This document shows positions 3,896 through 51,742 of a DNA stretch of 55,410 nucleotides, one piece after another. Position 1 is the first letter of the stretch. The number at the start of each line of letters is the position of its first letter. The notes under the pieces are model-generated. The model worked only from the letters and a program-made list of their open reading frames with translations. It did not search any database and was not told the DNA's origin. The translations under genes were made by a program, and so were the position numbers. Origin of the DNA: Alphaproteobacteria bacterium (lineage in GTDB: Bacteria > Pseudomonadota > Alphaproteobacteria > Rs-D84); assembly GCA_029059055.1 (NCBI GenBank), contig JAIDWS010000019.1:1-55410 (forward strand). The letters are read 5' to 3'.

Positions 3896-4070
3896 AAAAA
3901 ACCACCGGAAAATTCCAGGTGGCAGGAGGTTCGAAACTATCTATTATGAAATAGCGCGGGTTATTTGATATTCACCCGCCCTCCCGCCGACAAGCAGGAG
4001 ACATTTATCGTCTGCGCAGACGCATAATAGAGAGGTTTCGACGCCCCAACACCGGAATACCCGGTGTCAA
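3896..4070 (-). ncRNA. Structured leader/switch RNA, copy 1 (class A), upstream of the glycosyltransferase
   Basis: Promoter TTGCAT-N17-TATCAT (4076-4104). 5' hairpin ACACCGG/CCGGTGT. Closing stem TCGAAAC/GTTTCGA plus TCTATTATG/CATAATAGA. Switch CTCCTGC / GGCGGGAGG / CCTCCTGCC. Terminator CCACC/GGTGG-T6. Confidence 0.75.
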
Positions 4071-5968: not shown

Positions 5969-6202
5969 AAAAAAATACCGCCAAACAAGATGGCGGTCGG
6001 GAAGTTTAGAAATCATATTTGTTGAAATGACTCCGTTGCCTTTGGGATGACCCCTGTTGTATAACAAACGGCTCCCCGACCAGGGTCAGGGATATAACGG
6101 CGCAGTCATGCACCATCACATCAGATTCAGATATCGATGCAAAACTGCACCGCAACAAATAAGGGTTCTAACACCCCCGAAGCCAAATCCCTTTGGTTTC
6201 AC
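5969..6202 (-). ncRNA. Structured leader/switch RNA, copy 2 (class B), upstream of the OMP
   Basis: TTGAAA-N17-TAAACT. 5' hairpin GAAACCAAA-GGGA-TTTGGCTTC. Stems TTAGAA/TTCTAA and TATTTGTTG/CAACAAATA. Switch TCCCTGACC / GGTCGGGGAG / CTTCCCGACC. Terminator ACCGCCA/TGGCGGT-AT6. Confidence 0.75.
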
Positions 6203-6232
6203 GAAACAGTTTAAATTATCAGAATTTTGTTT

Positions 6233-8604: not shown

Positions 8605-8830
8605 AAAAAACCGCCACAGAATATGGCGGTCAGGGAGTTAGCAAATCACCTAAAAGATTGATTCCGCCAGCCTTTGGGAAACCCTGTTTTATAACTGGCA
8701 GCTCCCCGACCAACTGGCGGGGTATACAACAAAAGACGCTTACGCGCCCCATCGGCGGATTCAGTATTGCATGCAATACTGCTTTTAGGAGAGCTTGCTA
8801 CAGCCCTGAACCACATCCCTATGGTTCTAT
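8605..8830 (-). ncRNA. Structured leader/switch RNA, copy 3 (class B), upstream of the Cys-rich gene
   Basis: TTGACT-N18-CATAAT. 5' hairpin GAACCATA-GGGA-TGTGGTTC. Stems TAGCAA/TTGCTA and CCTAAAAG/CTTTTAGG. Switch CCCCGCC / GGTCGGGGAG / CTCCCTGACC. Terminator ACCGCCA/TGGCGGT-T5. Confidence 0.75.
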
Positions 8831-8981
8831 GGGTTAATTATGAATTATTCCAACGCACAAAGTCAAACAAATAATATGTTGTGGGGGCTTGATTACAAAA
8901 AAACGTGTGATATAATATGTCAACCAGGTAAAGCGTTATTTGCAATGTATGTCTGAAAACATGTGGGGAAAGAGGAGTCGC

Positions 8982-10579: not shown

Positions 10580-10863
10580 TCGAACCACATGGGGTGGTTC
10601 TCAACGACTTATCGTCGAACCCGGGGGACGGGTTCTTCGTCCGCGCCCCACAACAAAAAAACCGCCATGCGGCGGTTTATCTTGGTGGGGACACAGGGAC
10701 TCCCTCGGCACGGGGTGCCTGCGGGGCATTCCTGGCGTTTCGAACCACATGGGGTGGTTCTCAACGACTCATAGTCGAACCCGGGGTCCAGGGTTCTTCG
10801 TCCGCGCCCCACAACAAAAAAACCGCCATGCGGCGGTTTATCTTGGTGGGGACACAGGGACTC
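10580..10863 (-). repeat. tRNA-Lys-linked tandem repeat (two ~123-bp units, ~160-bp period)
   Basis: 10580-10702 is nearly identical to 10740-10863. Each unit carries the last 20 nt of tRNA-Lys and the CCGCC/GGCGG terminator. Confidence 0.9.
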
Positions 10864-10919
10864 GAACCCTGGACCCAATGATTAAAAGTCATTTGCTCTA
10901 CCAACTGAGCTATGTCCCC
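10844..10919 (-). tRNA. tRNA-Lys(TTT)
   Basis: GGGGACA/TGTCCCC acceptor, GACT-TTT-AATC anticodon arm, GGTTCGAG T-loop, encoded CCA. Confidence 0.96.
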
Positions 10920-19938: not shown

Positions 19939-20295
19939 TTATGGCATCCGATTGGCGGCCAAGGCATCCGTTATCAGGATAACGGCGTTAATATGCCGCG
20001 GGTCCATTTTATCCAGATTGCGCATAATACGCATACGTTTGGCGTCCTGGGTGTAATTGGCATCTGATTCCTGTAAAAATTGGCCCATTGGTATTTCCAA
20101 GTATTTACATATCTGATGCAGACGCGACACCGACATGCGATTACCGGCGCATTCATATTTTTGTATTTGTTGAAATGAACATCCAACGGCGCGTGCCAAG
20201 GCCTTTTGCGACAGTCCCTGGCGCGTGCGGTGCATGGTTAATAATCGACCCAAGCGTTTGTCATAATCGGTTACCAGTGTTGTTTTTCCGGCCAT
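19939..20295 (-). CDS. XRE-family HTH transcriptional regulator
   Basis: LGRLLTMHRTRQGLSQKALARAVGCSFQQIQKYECAGNRMSVSRL. Confidence 0.9.
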   Translation of the reverse strand: MAGKTTLVTDYDKRLGRLLTMHRTRQGLSQKALARAVGCSFQQIQKYECAGNRMSVSRLHQICKYLEIPMGQFLQESDANYTQDAKRMRIMRNLDKMDPRHINAVILITDALAANRMP

Positions 20296-20322
20296 TGCCA
20301 TCCCCCATCATATTATGGTTAT

Positions 20323-20496
20323 AAAAAACCGCCGCATAATATGGGCGGGTTGGAAATAGAAACCATGTTAAAGCGACACGTCTGCCTATTCAATATATTC
20401 AGCAGTTTCCAACCCATGAACGGATTGGCGTTTAACGCCTGCGCAGGCGGCTTTAAGCGAGGTTTCTAATCCCGCATAATAGGTTCCCTATTACAG
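20323..20496 (-). ncRNA. Structured leader/switch RNA, copy 4 (class A), upstream of the XRE regulator
   Basis: -10 TATAAT (20502-07). Stems TAGAAACC/GGTTTCTA and TTAAAGC/GCTTTAA. Switch CCAATCC / GGGTTGGAAA / TTTCCAACCC. Loop GAATATATTGAATA. Terminator CCGCC/GGCGG-T6. Confidence 0.75.
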
Positions 20497-20531
20497 GTTG
20501 TATTATAACCTATAATCAACAAGAACGCTAT

Positions 20532-20752
20532 AAAAAAATGGCCGCCCGTGCATTAAACTGGGTGGCCAAGGGGTGTTCAAAAATCATACTGAATAGATGA
20601 CTCCGTGGGCCTTACGACCAACGGCACCCCCGGCCAGGCACGGGGATATAACGGTGCGATGCACCGCTTATTCCTACTATTTACGATGCGTTATCGCACC
20701 GATTCAGTATGGGCTTTTGACAACCCCGAACCCACATCCCTGTGGATTCATG
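20532..20752 (-). ncRNA. Structured leader/switch RNA, copy 5 (class B)
   Basis: -10 TATGAT. 5' hairpin GAATCCACA-GGGA-TGTGGGTTC. Stems TCAAAA/TTTTGA and CATACTGAAT/ATTCAGTATG. Switch CCCCGTGCC / GGCCGGGGGTG / CACCCCTTGGCC. Terminator GGCCACCC/GGGCGGCC-AT7. Confidence 0.72.
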
Positions 20753-20819
20753 TCATATCATAACATGCGTCGCACGAAATAACAACCGAAATTATTTTCT
20801 GGATTGTTTCTATGGCAAT

Positions 20820-20987
20820 AAAAAAACCACCAAAAAATTCAGGTGGTTGGAGATTAAGTACCATTGAAAGATATGGCGTCGCTTATTCGATATATTCACG
20901 CCCCCCCAACCCATGGGGTGGAGTTTTTCATCCATTACAGATGTCTTTCAGGGGCTATCACACCCCGACGACGGAACACCCGTCGCC
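20820..20987 (-). ncRNA. Structured leader/switch RNA, copy 6 (class A)
   Basis: -10 TATAAT. 5' hairpin GGCGACGG/CCGTCGTC. Inner stem TGAAAGA/TCTTTCA; outer stem degenerate. Switch CTCCACCCC / GGGTTGGGG / CTCCAACC. Loop GAATATATCGAATAA. Terminator ACCACC/GGTGGT plus T run. Confidence 0.7.
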
Positions 20988-21045
20988 AAATTAATTATAC
21001 GATATGGCAGAATAAAAATCCATTATTTTGTTTGGGGAATTTTTT

Positions 21046-21150
21046 GGTTGGGCGATGGTAACCACCAAAGGTGTGGTTCCGTTTATTCTATTATATTGAC
21101 GGACACCCAACCAACCAGAATATTATATGACATTTGGCCCGTTAAATCAA
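21046..21150 (-). ncRNA. Minimal module of the same RNA family, with its own promoter
   Basis: TTGATT-N17-TATAAT (21122-21150), then GGTTGGGTG/CGCCCAACC enclosing TCCGT-CAATATAATAGAATAA-ACGGA. Confidence 0.55.
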
Positions 21151-21203
21151 CAGATGGGCCGAATGGCCCATCTGAAATCTACTGGATTGCTTCTACGGCA
21201 AAT

Positions 21204-21370
21204 AAAAACCACCAAAAAATTCAGGTGGTTGGAGAATGATAGCCATAGAAAGATATGGTGTCGTTTATTCGATATATTCACGACCCTCCAACCCAATGGG
21301 CGGAGTTTTTCATCCATCACGGATGTCTTTGTGGGGTTACCATACCCCGGCAGCAGAACACCTGCTGTCG
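21204..21370 (-). ncRNA. Structured leader/switch RNA, copy 7 (class A), near-duplicate of copy 6
   Basis: TGGCAT-N17-TATAAT. 5' hairpin CAGCAG/CTGCTG. Stem ATGGTAACC/GGCTATCAT. Switch CTCCGCCCA / GGGTTGGAG / CTCCAACC. Same loop and terminator as copy 6. Confidence 0.72.
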
Positions 21371-21453
21371 GGATGATTATATAACATGTAAAAATAAAAT
21401 GCCATTCTTTTTTTGGGGGAAATTCCCGGCACCGTAATGGTGCCGGGGCGCCG

Positions 21454-23226
21454 TCACACCAAATGCGCGTCACGCATCAGTTCTTCGATATACGTGTTTT
21501 CGATTTTCTTTAACCCGCGGCGTTCCAATAACGTCACAAACCACGGTAATTTCATCTGGCGCAGGGTCTTTTTATCCGTCAGATAATACAGACTGCGCAG
21601 CAATACGCGCACGTCAAAGCATGAACCGAATACTTCTGGTACGCCGCGGTCAATGTTCATCAGGGTATAAACCGCTTCCATCGCGGTGCGGACGGAATAT
21701 TCGGTCGTGAACACCGTATCGCGAACGGTTTCCGCGTAATTGCCGATGAATGCCAAATTCACCGACCCGTTTGGCACGACGGCCGGCCGGTCACCCAATG
21801 CGCGCGGCATGAAATACGTCGTGATGAACGGCATATGGCACGGCACGGTGTTGGCGGATGTTGTCGCGATTTCCATAATCTGGGATTCGGGAACGCCGAT
21901 GTGATACAACCATTCCGCGCACAGTTCGGCGCCGGTGCATTCGGTGATTTTCTTCTTTATATAATTACCCGGCCGGTCGGAAAACAGACCGTATACCCAA
22001 ACGATGGTTTGGTTCTTTTTCTGGGCACGGAAATGCGGCTGGCGCGAAATGCTGAACCCGTATAACCAATTGGAATCTTTTATTGTGACGGGGCCACTGC
22101 TGACGATGGAACCGCTGTGCGGGTCTTTTTTGCAAATCTTTTCAATATACGGCGTGACGCTGTCGTCGTTTAATGTGATGGTCGCGCTGATAACCCAATT
22201 GGCCGCCGGTATGTTTTCACAGAACTTTTCCGGATGGCCGAAATCGGGTGATTGCGCCGCCAATTTTTTCCACAATTTCCACGAACCGCCAATGTCCGTC
22301 GGTGTGGGCGCCGGTGTGCTGTTGGTGCCGTATGTACTGCTTTCGGTGATGGACCCGTTGGTCACAAATACCAAATCATTGCGGGTCAGCGATATGGTCT
22401 TTTTCTTGCCGGATGTCACCAATTCGATTTTTTTGGCGACTTTCTGGTCCGGGGTGACGTCAACCACGATGTTGGTTACCTGGGTATCATAATGGAATTG
22501 AACACCGCGCGATTCCAGATATTTCACCAACGGCAAAATCAAAGATTCATACTGATTATATTTGGTGAATTTCAATGATGACATATCGGCCAACGCACCC
22601 ACATGGTGGATAAAGCGCAATATATATCGGCGCATTTCCATGGCACTGGACCATGGTTCGAACGCGAACATCGTCGCCCAATACAGCCAGAAATTGGATT
22701 CAAAGAATTCATCTGTAAAAACCTGGTCGATGCGGACGTCTTGTAATTCTTCTTCGGTCATCAGGGCCAGTTTGATTAATTCCCGGATGGCGGTCGGGGT
22801 CAATGTCAATTTGCCGTCGGATTTCATACGTTTACCGCGTTTTTCGATGACGCGGGCGTGTGAAAAGCTGGGGTCGGATTTGTTCAGCCAATAAAATTCG
22901 TCCAAAACCGACGCGTCGGCCGTTTCCAGGGACGGAATCGACCGGAACAAATCCCACAGGGTTTCAAAGTGGGCCTCCATTTCACGGCCGCCGCGAATGA
23001 TAAATCCGCGCTGTGGGTTCCAGATGCCGTCCATACTGCCGCCGGGAACGGCCAATTCTTCAAAGATATGAATTTTTTTGCCGTCAACGCCCCCGTCGCG
23101 GATTAAAAACACCGCCGCCGCCAGTGATGCCAGACCACTGCCGACCAGGTATGCGGATTTTTTATCCGCATCTTTTGGGCGCATCGGCCGGGCAAAGGCT
23201 TCGTAATTTCCATTGCTGTAATACAT
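21454..23226 (-). CDS. ohyA: Oleate hydratase (myosin-cross-reactive antigen family)
   Basis: [14 protein letters not shown] start, [23 protein letters not shown] motif, [40 protein letters not shown]. Confidence 0.96.
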
Positions 23227-27895: not shown

Positions 27896-28123
27896 TCACA
27901 GATTATTCTTGCCGCGCTTGATAATCAGCATTGCGAACGCCCCGTGGTAAAATCGGCGCATGTTGCCTTCGTCAAATAACATCTTGCCGCGTTCGCATTT
28001 GACATAGTCTGCGTATTTCATCTTTAACAACGCGGCCGCGTCGCGGCTGTTTATTTTCAGGTGTTCGCGGGCGCACCGCATAATATTGCCATAGTAATTG
28101 GCGTCGATTAACAGTCTTGGCAT
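27896..28123 (-). CDS. Small XRE-like HTH protein
   Basis: IMRCAREHLKINSRDAAALLKMKYADYVKCERG resembles the XRE helix pattern; AAGGAG RBS. Confidence 0.6.
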   Translation of the reverse strand: MPRLLIDANYYGNIMRCAREHLKINSRDAAALLKMKYADYVKCERGKMLFDEGNMRRFYHGAFAMLIIKRGKNNL

Positions 28124-28149: not shown

Positions 28150-28322
28150 AAAAAAACACCGCCGCACGGAATTGTGGGCGGTTGGAGGTTAGAAACTATC
28201 GATACAATAGCACGGCTTATTCAATATATTCGCCGTCCTCCAACCAACGGGGGTTGGAGATGTTTTGTGTCATCGCTGACAGTATCAAAAGGTTTCTAAG
28301 CCTACACCGGTTTCCCAATGCG
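28150..28322 (-). ncRNA. Structured leader/switch RNA, copy 8 (class A), upstream of the small HTH gene
   Basis: TTGAAC-N17-TATACT. 5' hairpin with GAAA loop. Stems TTAGAAAC/GTTTCTAA and TTGATAC/GTATCGA. Switch CTCCAACC / GGTTGGAGG / CCTCCAACC. Loop GAATATATTGAATAA. Terminator ACCGCC/GGCGGT. Confidence 0.78.
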
Positions 28323-50995: not shown

Positions 50996-51742
50996 TTTTA
51001 CTCCTTTTTGTTGTTTGGGGTTGGCAACATTTGCCCGCCCGACACCATTGTCGGTCAGGATTGTTGCTCGACTATGAATCGTGAGTCAAGTCGTCATTGA
51101 CATCGGTCATGACAACAACTCGCGAAAAACAGTCAAAAAAAGCCCCACGTAGGGGCTTGTCATAATTTGTCAGGGAAATTTAGTCAGGAAAAATGAATCG
51201 TGAAAATTGCACAAAAAAACACCGCAATCGCGGCAGTCATAAATCTGAATCGCAAAACCCGAATCATAAACTTAAAACAAACAAGATAGAATACGCCTTA
51301 TAAGCGATATAAATTTGTTTAAGCGATATGAACGTATTATAACATAATTAAAATAAAAATGTGAAAAATTTTCTACACCGCAGGAAACCAACAAAAAATT
51401 GCAAAAAACAATAAAAGAAACGATTCGATATCGTATATCATTTATGGTCTTTTATAAACCCCTTGCGACGGACTTTTGTCCGTGATAAAATATTATGTGA
51501 ATCCAATGGGAATTGGGTTCGGGGCCGTCGAAAAGCCTTTACTTTCCGGTGCGAAACAAATGTCATCGTTAGTCCGATGTCGTTCCTGTTGTTTTGCATC
51601 GTTATTTATTCCCTGACCTTTATTGGTCGGGGCGCTATTGGCTATACAACACGGGCATGCCCGAAAGGCCAACAGGGTCATTGAAAGTATGATTTTTCGA
51701 ACTCCCCGACCGTCAATTCTTGTTGACGGTTTAATTTTTTAT

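Follow-up and report, generated by a model that had tools for sequence, protein, structure and literature searches.

A stack of five switch-like RNA units upstream of an XRE-family regulator gene in an uncultured alphaproteobacterium

This study focused on a 1.15-kb gap (20302-21453) between two minus-strand genes, one for an XRE-family helix-turn-helix (HTH) regulator and the other for an MCRA protein, in a 55,410-nucleotide (nt) contig of an alphaproteobacterium of the GTDB lineage Rs-D84 (JAIDWS010000019.1, contig C11 of the source genome; hereafter the window). The gap was found to be filled by five RNA units on the same minus strand, designated u1, u1.5, u2, u3 and u4, which comprise three full class-A units (u1, u2, u4), one class-B unit (u3) and one core-only unit (u1.5). 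Inspection of the open reading frame (ORF) list gave no credible coding sequence between the two genes, in agreement with a first-pass annotation made from the letters of the sequence, which had described four switch RNAs in the class order A-B-A-A along the plus strand. Those four units are real and their order is correct (three were recovered by the covariance model described below and u3 by nhmmer; see the table), but the count fell one short, as u1.5 had been missed. Only u4 shows the succession of promoter, structured leader, terminator and same-strand ORF expected of a 5' leader, with u1, u1.5, u2 and u3 having no ORF behind them. The ORF-less units are nevertheless old and under purifying selection, and the explanation favoured here, held at about even confidence, is that the units are modules connected in series, each initiating transcription independently and terminating it conditionally.

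Relatives of the units were collected by nhmmer within the window's own genome (998 kb, 38 contigs), and ~54 class-A and ~21 class-B copies were found, making ~75 units, each about 170-230 nt long, that together account for several per cent of this 1-Mb genome's intergenic DNA. The family is first of all a 5' leader, because ~64 of the 75 copies stop 17-60 nt before a co-oriented ORF, which carries a Shine-Dalgarno (SD) site. The ORFs led in this way include ~20 paralogues of a 75-amino-acid (aa) HTH-like protein, ~30 cysteine-rich proteins with a signal peptide, and four XRE regulators, paralogous to one another and 118-125 aa in length, that lie behind class-A or class-B units. The family is absent from Rfam and is uncatalogued: at gathering thresholds, Rfam returned no match to it in the whole window, and permissive scans gave only sub-threshold matches to sRNA-Xcc1, c4-2 and the SgrS terminator.

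In a full unit, a predicted promoter is followed by a compact fold with two pseudoknots and then by an intrinsic terminator. The class-A fold was examined in an alignment of 34 class-A copies from the source genome (A2), and class A was also represented by a covariance model (R1). It comprises a 5' hairpin (P0), hairpins P1a and P2, a closing helix P1 (GGUUGGAGG/CCUCCAACC) that surrounds hairpins H1 and H2, and the terminator. Helix cells of A2 were paired in 95.1% of cases compared with 83% after shuffling, and 152 helix cells showed double changes compared with 47, values that were reached in 0 of 500 shuffles. In the first pseudoknot (PK1), the P1a loop pairs with the linker preceding the P1 3' strand, with covariation at five of the six pairs. 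The second (PK2) is formed between the H2 loop and the linker that follows P1a, and differs in sequence in almost all copies; its mean length was 7.5 base pairs (bp) against 4.2 in shuffled sequences, and the equivalent pairing of class B averaged 9.4 bp against 5.3.

The AACC of the P1 3' strand is common to the terminator stem (shared columns A186-C188 of the alignment), and an upstream segment, seg1 (CUCCAACC), is able to pair with the P1 5' strand instead. These pairings are kept in 94-100% of cases for seg1:seg2 and in 97.7% for seg2:seg3 (P1), and all three segments co-vary. Since the terminator reuses the AACC of P1 and seg1 competes for the P1 partner, the anatomy of the unit is predicted to be that of a four-segment terminator/antiterminator switch, and the name switch RNA given in the first-pass annotation is a fair one, with pairings at least 94% kept. 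P1 and the seg sequences are almost invariant across copies, and the other helices vary freely. H1 carries a conserved loop, UGAAUAUAUUGAAUAA, with the frame GAAUA...AAUAA (for example in u4, window 20398-20412) and a centre that is often an AU-rich palindrome (AAUAUAUU, GAUAUAUC, AAAUAUUU). A kissing-loop or operator role for this loop was considered and rejected, as the same position holds an ordinary inserted hairpin in some copies in other species; for that reason the loop centre is more likely an intramolecular element.

Sequence features of the array and its flanking genes. Identity is to the sister species G088, at its orthologous locus (G088:C3) where so marked.
Feature	Position in window	Strand	Basis	Identity to G088
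MCRA / oleate-hydratase-like gene	21454-23226	-		
u1 promoter region	21375-21410	-		36/36 (G088:C3)
u1 promoter (predicted), ATGGCA - 18 nt - TATAAT	21376..21405	-	consensus scan, 10/12 matches	
u1, full class A, no ORF downstream	21204..21374	-	R1 138 bits	RNA body 90% (G088:C3)
Flank after u1				29/29 (G088:C3)
Second (extra) hairpin after u1, CAGATGGGCCATTCGGCCCATCTG then TTGATTT	21151..21174	-	terminator scan	24/24 (G088:C3)
Promoter-like site before u1.5 core, TTGATT - 17 nt - TATAAT	21122..21150	-	scan, 10/12 matches	27/29
u1.5 core	21045..21121	-	nhmmer E 3e-4; R1 47.5 bits, E 1e-11 over 21015-21193	94% (G088:C3)
u2 promoter region	20993-21044	-		52/52 (G088:C3)
u2 promoter (predicted), ATGGAT - 18 nt - TATAAT	20994..21023	-	read from sequence; in register with u1 promoter	
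u2, full class A, no ORF downstream here	20822..20992	-	R1 139 bits	RNA body 86% (G088:C3)
3' flank of u2, TTGCCA...AATAAT, promoter-like	20791..20818	-	scan	
u3 promoter (predicted), TTGTTA - 17 nt - TGtTATGAT	20757..20785	-	scan, 9/12 matches + TG	
u3, class B, short-H1 subtype, no ORF downstream	20530..20750 (approx.)	-	nhmmer, inverted repeat I1	
u4 -10 box, TATAAT (perfect)	20502..20507	-	read from sequence; absent from promoter-scan output	
u4, class A, 5' leader of XRE gene	20324..20500	-	R1 95 bits	
XRE-family HTH regulator gene	19939-20301, or 19939..20295 from second ATG (118 aa)	-	SD GGGGGA; Pfam HTH_31 + HTH_3	

At each of the four units first described, a TATAAT-like -10 box and a GC-rich hairpin followed by a U-run are present, as had been claimed. 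Predicted promoter-like sites precede u1, u1.5, u2 and u3, those of u1, u1.5 and u2 being conserved in the sister species, and both promoter and terminator sequences are predicted for u1, u2 and u3. A helix-by-helix check of u1 found all of the class-A elements, namely P0, P1a, P2, seg1, P1, H1, H2, PK1 (AUGGUA/UAUCAU), PK2 (AAAGA/UCUUU) and a terminator (AACCACC...GGUGGUU plus a U-run). The predicted terminators of u1 and u2, at -9.2 kcal/mol, are among the weaker ones of the family. A further terminator-like hairpin stands 30 nt past that of u1, and in the R1 alignment it takes the place of the P1a-like hairpin of u1.5. The u1.5 unit itself consists of P1 (GGUUGGGUG/CGCCCAACC) enclosing H1 (loop CAAUAUAAUAGAAUAA) and H2, and has no terminator hairpin, PK1 or PK2; it is probably transcribed together with u2 as a single RNA.

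The u2 unit has a PK2 of 7 bp, and is 81-85% identical to u1 across ~255 nt, promoter and 3' flank included. Its 3' flank is a duplicate of that after u1 (TTGCCG...TAGATT), as judged by flank alignment, and in the source genome lies at the upstream edge of the extra segment discussed below. The u3 promoter can be aligned with those of 20 further class-B copies, and nhmmer scored u3 at E 1e-84 to itself and 3e-33 to its closest paralogue. It has a conserved 5' domain (UGAAUCCACAGGGAUGUGGGUUCGGGG), a long-range pseudoknot of 10 bp (CAUACUGAAU/AUUCAGUAUG), a P1 helix (GGCCGGGGG/CCCCUUGGCC) set apart from the class consensus through a compensatory change, as well as a terminator (GGCCACCC...GGGCGGCC plus U7). 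In u4, PK2 is 7 bp, P1 is GGGUUGGAAA/AUUUCCAACCC and the terminator is CCGCC...GGCGG plus U6; the promoter scan gave no recognisable -35 for this unit, and the corresponding region overlaps the U-run of u3. The U-run of u4 ends 28 nt short of the XRE gene, the distance given in the first-pass annotation, when the start is taken as the second ATG (20295), which is favoured by orthologues (that of G088 begins MAGK).

No leader-peptide ORF with a Shine-Dalgarno site was found inside the units. ORFs of 30-108 aa do overlie them, but these begin upstream of or inside the promoters and have no Shine-Dalgarno sites, and similar ORFs repeated in the arrays of genomes G125 and G074 merely mirror RNA conservation, so that the leader-peptide idea was set aside.

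Comparison with the sister species G088 supports the view that the ORF-less units are not relics. At the orthologous locus (G088:C3), u1, u1.5, u2 and the XRE gene are all present in this order, and the adjacent FKBP gene is also kept. The block 21470-20808 is 90.1% identical over 669 nt, compared with 84.3% for the XRE and FKBP stretch and only 64% (58 of 91) for the four-fold degenerate sites of these two genes; the XRE proteins share 84% amino-acid identity. Sequence changes within the units tend to preserve the fold. PK1 of the u1 counterparts is UGACUA/UAGUCA at the orthologous locus and UUAAGUA/UACUUAA in a paralogous array (G088:C1), where P1 of u1.5 also shows a compensatory G:C to A:U change. 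P0 of u1 has compensatory changes relative to its G088 orthologue and, between u1 and u2, three fully compensatory pairs. Relatives of u3 occur in G088 as copies 83-88% identical. Because of this high block identity relative to four-fold sites, the identical promoters and the compensatory changes, the ORF-less units are best regarded as old and under purifying selection, contrary to the suggestion that units other than u4 might be decaying relics.

The promoter regions of u1 and u2 share the sequence AATGG(C/A)ATTTT(T)ATT. Their identity to G088 exceeds the need of the -35 and -10 elements, and they may therefore contain a protein operator. Upstream of the G088 array, a match of 85% identity was found to window 21470-21411 (the last MCRA codons and terminator; L196 ~1401-1470, reverse complement). 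The gene upstream of the array differs in G088:C3, and this match may be the remnant of a lost MCRA gene.

Unit number has not been stable. The locus holds five units in the source genome and three in G088:C3, and the extra ~475 nt (20808-20334) correspond to u3 and the body of u4. Both ends of this difference fall in conserved P1-3'/terminator segments, which points to recombination between units. The XRE 5' untranslated region past the u4 terminator is orthologous to that past the u2 terminator in G088, where the XRE gene has the u2 orthologue as its nearest leader, and an orphan pair consisting of a u3-like unit and a u4-like core is found at another site of the G088 genome. In the unit tree, u1 and u2 are sisters and u4 groups with the leaders of paralogous XRE genes on contigs C34 and C15; the closest relative of u3 is the class-B leader of another XRE paralogue. 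As the units fall in different lineages and the ends of the insertion/deletion sit in terminator segments, the array appears to be a mosaic of at least three lineages, produced by local duplication and unequal recombination between units. Spacers within the arrays of two further genomes (G013 and G022) are near-identical repeats.

Arrays of this kind, with 2-7 units, are found in many species of the genus before XRE and other small regulator-like genes, and in the source genome preferentially at XRE genes. Three of the four XRE paralogues of the source genome have extra upstream units, compared with two of ~60 other led genes (Fisher p = 0.0009). They include the five units described here and two on C34. 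The last ~80 nt of contig C7 equal positions ~35-110 of the reverse complement of C15, and on the basis of this overlap the two contigs are probably adjacent in the genome, which would place at least two class-A units before the third XRE paralogue. Several contig breaks lie at or beside units. R1 detected the family in 40 of the 41 genomes sampled from the genus, at 1-59 copies each, and across the order in 103 of 121 genomes and 14 of 20 genera. Arrays upstream of XRE homologues were found in G022 (seven nhmmer hits), G013 (six and two), G003 (two), G032 (two) and G088, which has two A-core-A arrays of three units each and one B-B array. Core-only, terminator-less units recur within the arrays of G013, G032 and G088. 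Arrays of 2-5 units also precede genes for small proteins of 62-98 aa in G032, G066, G125, G068 and G074; these proteins look regulator-like by eye, with an HTH-like pattern, but gave no Pfam HTH match and no BLASTP similarity to the 75-aa HTH protein of the source genome. A few arrays precede an outer membrane protein-like gene and a phospholipase D (PLD)-like nuclease gene, and one genome with 45 copies has no arrays. When genomes of GTDB species were scanned with an XRE profile, a class-A leader was present at only one of the 80 best loci (mostly from other Alphaproteobacteria), and the leader is thus tied to a narrow XRE subfamily. The MCRA gene is present in 11 members of the genus, none of which has an array or an XRE gene downstream of it.

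How such a stack might work is suggested by the anatomy of its units. With the switches off, each promoter would give a short, terminated RNA and the XRE gene would be silent. A shared signal favouring P1 would allow read-through from several promoters to sum at the XRE gene. With a read-through probability r at each unit, output would be proportional to the sum of r^k taken over the units of the stack, and the response of the stack would therefore be both steeper and larger than that of a single leader. The pair formed by u3 (class B) and u4 (class A, with a poor promoter) would be the most likely true two-switch leader; the proposal in the first-pass annotation of stacked attenuators forming a multi-input gate is possible, and fits this pair best because u4 lacks a -35 element. 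Short RNAs made with the switches off may in addition have a trans-acting role, as has been proposed for the Brt RNAs of Bartonella.

Several observations weigh against wiring in series. The gate suits u1 poorly, as it has its own promoter and its own terminator, with the second terminator-like hairpin beyond, and looks insulated from the XRE gene. All of the units upstream of u4 have their own predicted promoters, which a pure serial gate does not need. The PK1 complementarity of u2 has gone in the source genome, the sole sign of decay in the array, and no partner was identified for the conserved H1 loop. A recent transfer of the block could in principle explain the high identity between species; selection is favoured because the RNA bodies diverge by 10-14% beside perfectly conserved promoters.

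The self-contained nature of most units raises the alternative that those without an ORF are stand-alone genes for trans-acting small RNAs (sRNAs), a sibling-sRNA array with efficient termination, and this is judged possible but distinctly less probable than modules in series. Such RNAs might be decoys that titrate the protein or ligand by which all ~75 leaders are switched, or might pair with nascent leaders via seg1, seg2 or seg3; the adjacency of the XRE gene would then reflect co-regulation and not read-through. Units with their own predicted promoter and terminator, the double terminator of u1 and the perfect conservation of promoters between the source genome and G088 are all in keeping with this, the near-invariant P1 and seg sequences suggest a shared partner, terminator-less core-only units recur in arrays, and for Brt1 of Bartonella a role in trans has been proposed alongside one in cis (PMC5387305). 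Nonetheless, the great majority of the family are plainly 5' leaders and no trans target or binding factor was identified. The poor promoter of u4 and the missing terminator of u1.5 also mean that some units must be co-transcribed with a neighbour. A more speculative proposal, and a somewhat doubtful one, is that the arrays are selected RNA hubs, in which bulk short RNAs from the ORF-less units act in trans on the whole regulon of ~75 leaders. If so, they would act by titration of a common switch factor or by seg1/seg2/seg3 pairing, the XRE regulator behind the array would close a feedback loop, and the result would be a regulon-wide RNA threshold or amplifier built from stacked copies of the very switch that it controls, with the core-only module, resembling sRNA-Xcc1, as the ancestral trans-acting part.

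It is also conceivable, though unlikely, that frequent recombination and duplication among dispersed leaders gave rise to the array as a side effect, with the extra units functionless and tolerated. The local duplication of u1 and u2, the near-identical spacers of the G013 and G022 arrays, the unequal unit numbers of sister species, the mosaic of at least three lineages and the broken PK1 of u2 all speak for such a process. Neutral units would hardly show the block identity and promoter conservation described above, nor compensatory changes in PK1, P0 and P1, and it would also have to be explained why the A-core-A order is kept at two G088 loci and why arrays are enriched at regulator genes. 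The idea of a nursery of copies put forward in the first-pass annotation therefore holds in part: local duplication and recombination are supported (three versus five units), but the units are old and under purifying selection, and not transient. Very improbable is a pile-up of non-autonomous mobile repeats in a permissive gap, like miniature inverted-repeat transposable elements (MITEs) or repetitive extragenic palindromic sequences, or an artefact of assembly. The copy number is high for a 1-Mb genome and several contigs end inside or beside units, but neither terminal inverted repeats nor target duplications were seen, nearly all of the 75 copies are co-oriented with the following gene at a fixed distance, and positions are orthologous in another species; the MITE or transposon idea was rejected for want of terminal inverted repeats and a transposase. 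As for mis-assembly, which had been raised as a caveat, an independent metagenome contig in ENA is 100% identical across 6 kb, whole array included, G088 carries both orthologous and paralogous arrays, and the units differ from one another by 15-45%, so reads cannot have been mis-stacked.

Elsewhere in the window, a 75-aa HTH_31-like gene (27896-28123, minus strand) has a class-A leader (28151-28316) immediately before it. This module of leader and HTH gene has ~20 paralogues in the genome, other contigs included, and often stands just upstream of a second leader with a secreted-protein gene. Four further single leaders, one of class A and three of class B, were found at 3896-4070 (-), 5983-6205 (-), 8621-8862 (-) and 51481-51711 (+), behind which lie genes for proteins of 311 aa, 212 aa (lipoprotein-like) and 159 aa (secreted), and an ORF of 112 aa. 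The window also contains a pair of 73-nt direct repeats that are 100% identical (10630-10702 and 10791-10863) and a 47-nt pair that is 96% identical; terminator-like hairpins lie in these repeats, one of which reaches into the end of a tRNA gene (10847-10919).

The array can be compared with several known arrangements of regulatory RNAs. In trp and his attenuators, and in tandem glycine or SAM/AdoCbl riboswitches, terminator and antiterminator helices are mutually exclusive, and a gene preceded by at least two complete sensors in series can have a sharper response or be under the control of a logic gate. The present array differs in that most units have their own predicted promoter, up to 5-7 of them are stacked, no leader peptide was found and some units have no terminator. 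Closer in layout are LhrC1-4 of Listeria, which are paralogous sRNA genes arranged head to tail within one intergenic region, each with its own promoter and terminator. The LhrC RNAs are short and trans-acting and are not leaders, whereas the last unit of the present array is a leader and the family leads about 64 other genes. To our knowledge, stacks of up to seven promoter-bearing switches before a single regulator gene have been described for no riboswitch or attenuator family. The array indicates that selection can keep ORF-less 'spare' switches, for which candidate designs are serial amplification, logic between two switch classes, and trans-acting decoys.

The fold of the core resembles that of sRNA-Xcc1 (RF02221) and the c4 clan, in which two hairpins sit inside an outer 9-bp G-rich helix and an ACC-rich tail comes after it. 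The matches fall well short of membership: sRNA-Xcc1 scored 23.7 bits (E 0.2) with u2 and 19.3 bits with u3, against a gathering threshold of 53, c4-2 (RF02944) gave 16.8 bits, with u3 only, against 41, and neither u1 nor u4 was among the sRNA-Xcc1 matches in scans at E<=5 and E<=10. In architecture the agreement is better, as cmscan places P1, H1 and H2, each backed by covariation, onto the three helices of the sRNA-Xcc1 model, the size of which is about that of the core-only u1.5. Full units differ in that they also have a 5' domain, the pseudoknots PK1 and PK2, the decoy segment seg1 and a terminator whose 5' arm overlaps P1, and the array, with MCRA, XRE and FKBP genes as its neighbours and phage genes not among them, lacks an integron context and the phage context, that of a prophage immunity region, expected for c4 RNAs. 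In Xanthomonas integron cassettes, sRNA-Xcc1 lies upstream of symE (bioRxiv 10.1101/2025.06.18.660453). An sRNA-Xcc1 match just below threshold (49.5 of 53 bits, E 1e-7) was also noted in the Bartonella grahamii plasmid pBGR3 (L200 25880-25967, -), ~40 nt upstream of a hypothetical gene and so in a leader-like position. The array provides a context in which this poorly understood fold can be studied.

The closest described analogue appears to be the Brt/Trp module of Bartonella. Brt RNAs are multi-copy (0-34 per genome), roughly 200 nt long and highly structured, with a terminator-like 3' end (PMC5387305, Tu et al. 2016); they lie directly upstream of genes for Trp regulators, which are XRE-family proteins of 108-152 aa, and have been proposed to serve both as a riboswitch-like gate in cis and as an sRNA in trans (PMC5387305). 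Both systems belong to alphaproteobacterial hosts and place a multi-copy, structured RNA of ~200 nt right before an XRE gene of similar size, which here holds for all four XRE paralogues. The XRE protein behind the array is 37% identical to the 118-aa XRE protein of pBGR3 (E 4e-15), with the same length and a common SFQQIQKYE motif. For the RNAs no evidence of homology was obtained: the class-A model alone, applied upstream of the pBGR3 XRE gene as a stand-in for the Brt region, gave 10 bits. The two also differ in that each Brt unit has its own trp gene, ORF-less stacks before one gene not having been described there, whereas the present family also precedes dozens of secreted-protein genes. 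In uncultured gut Alphaproteobacteria, the family lies before genes for secreted proteins rich in cysteine and for many small regulators. The principle of the Brt/Trp module, that of RNA-gated XRE regulators, may extend to a whole order.

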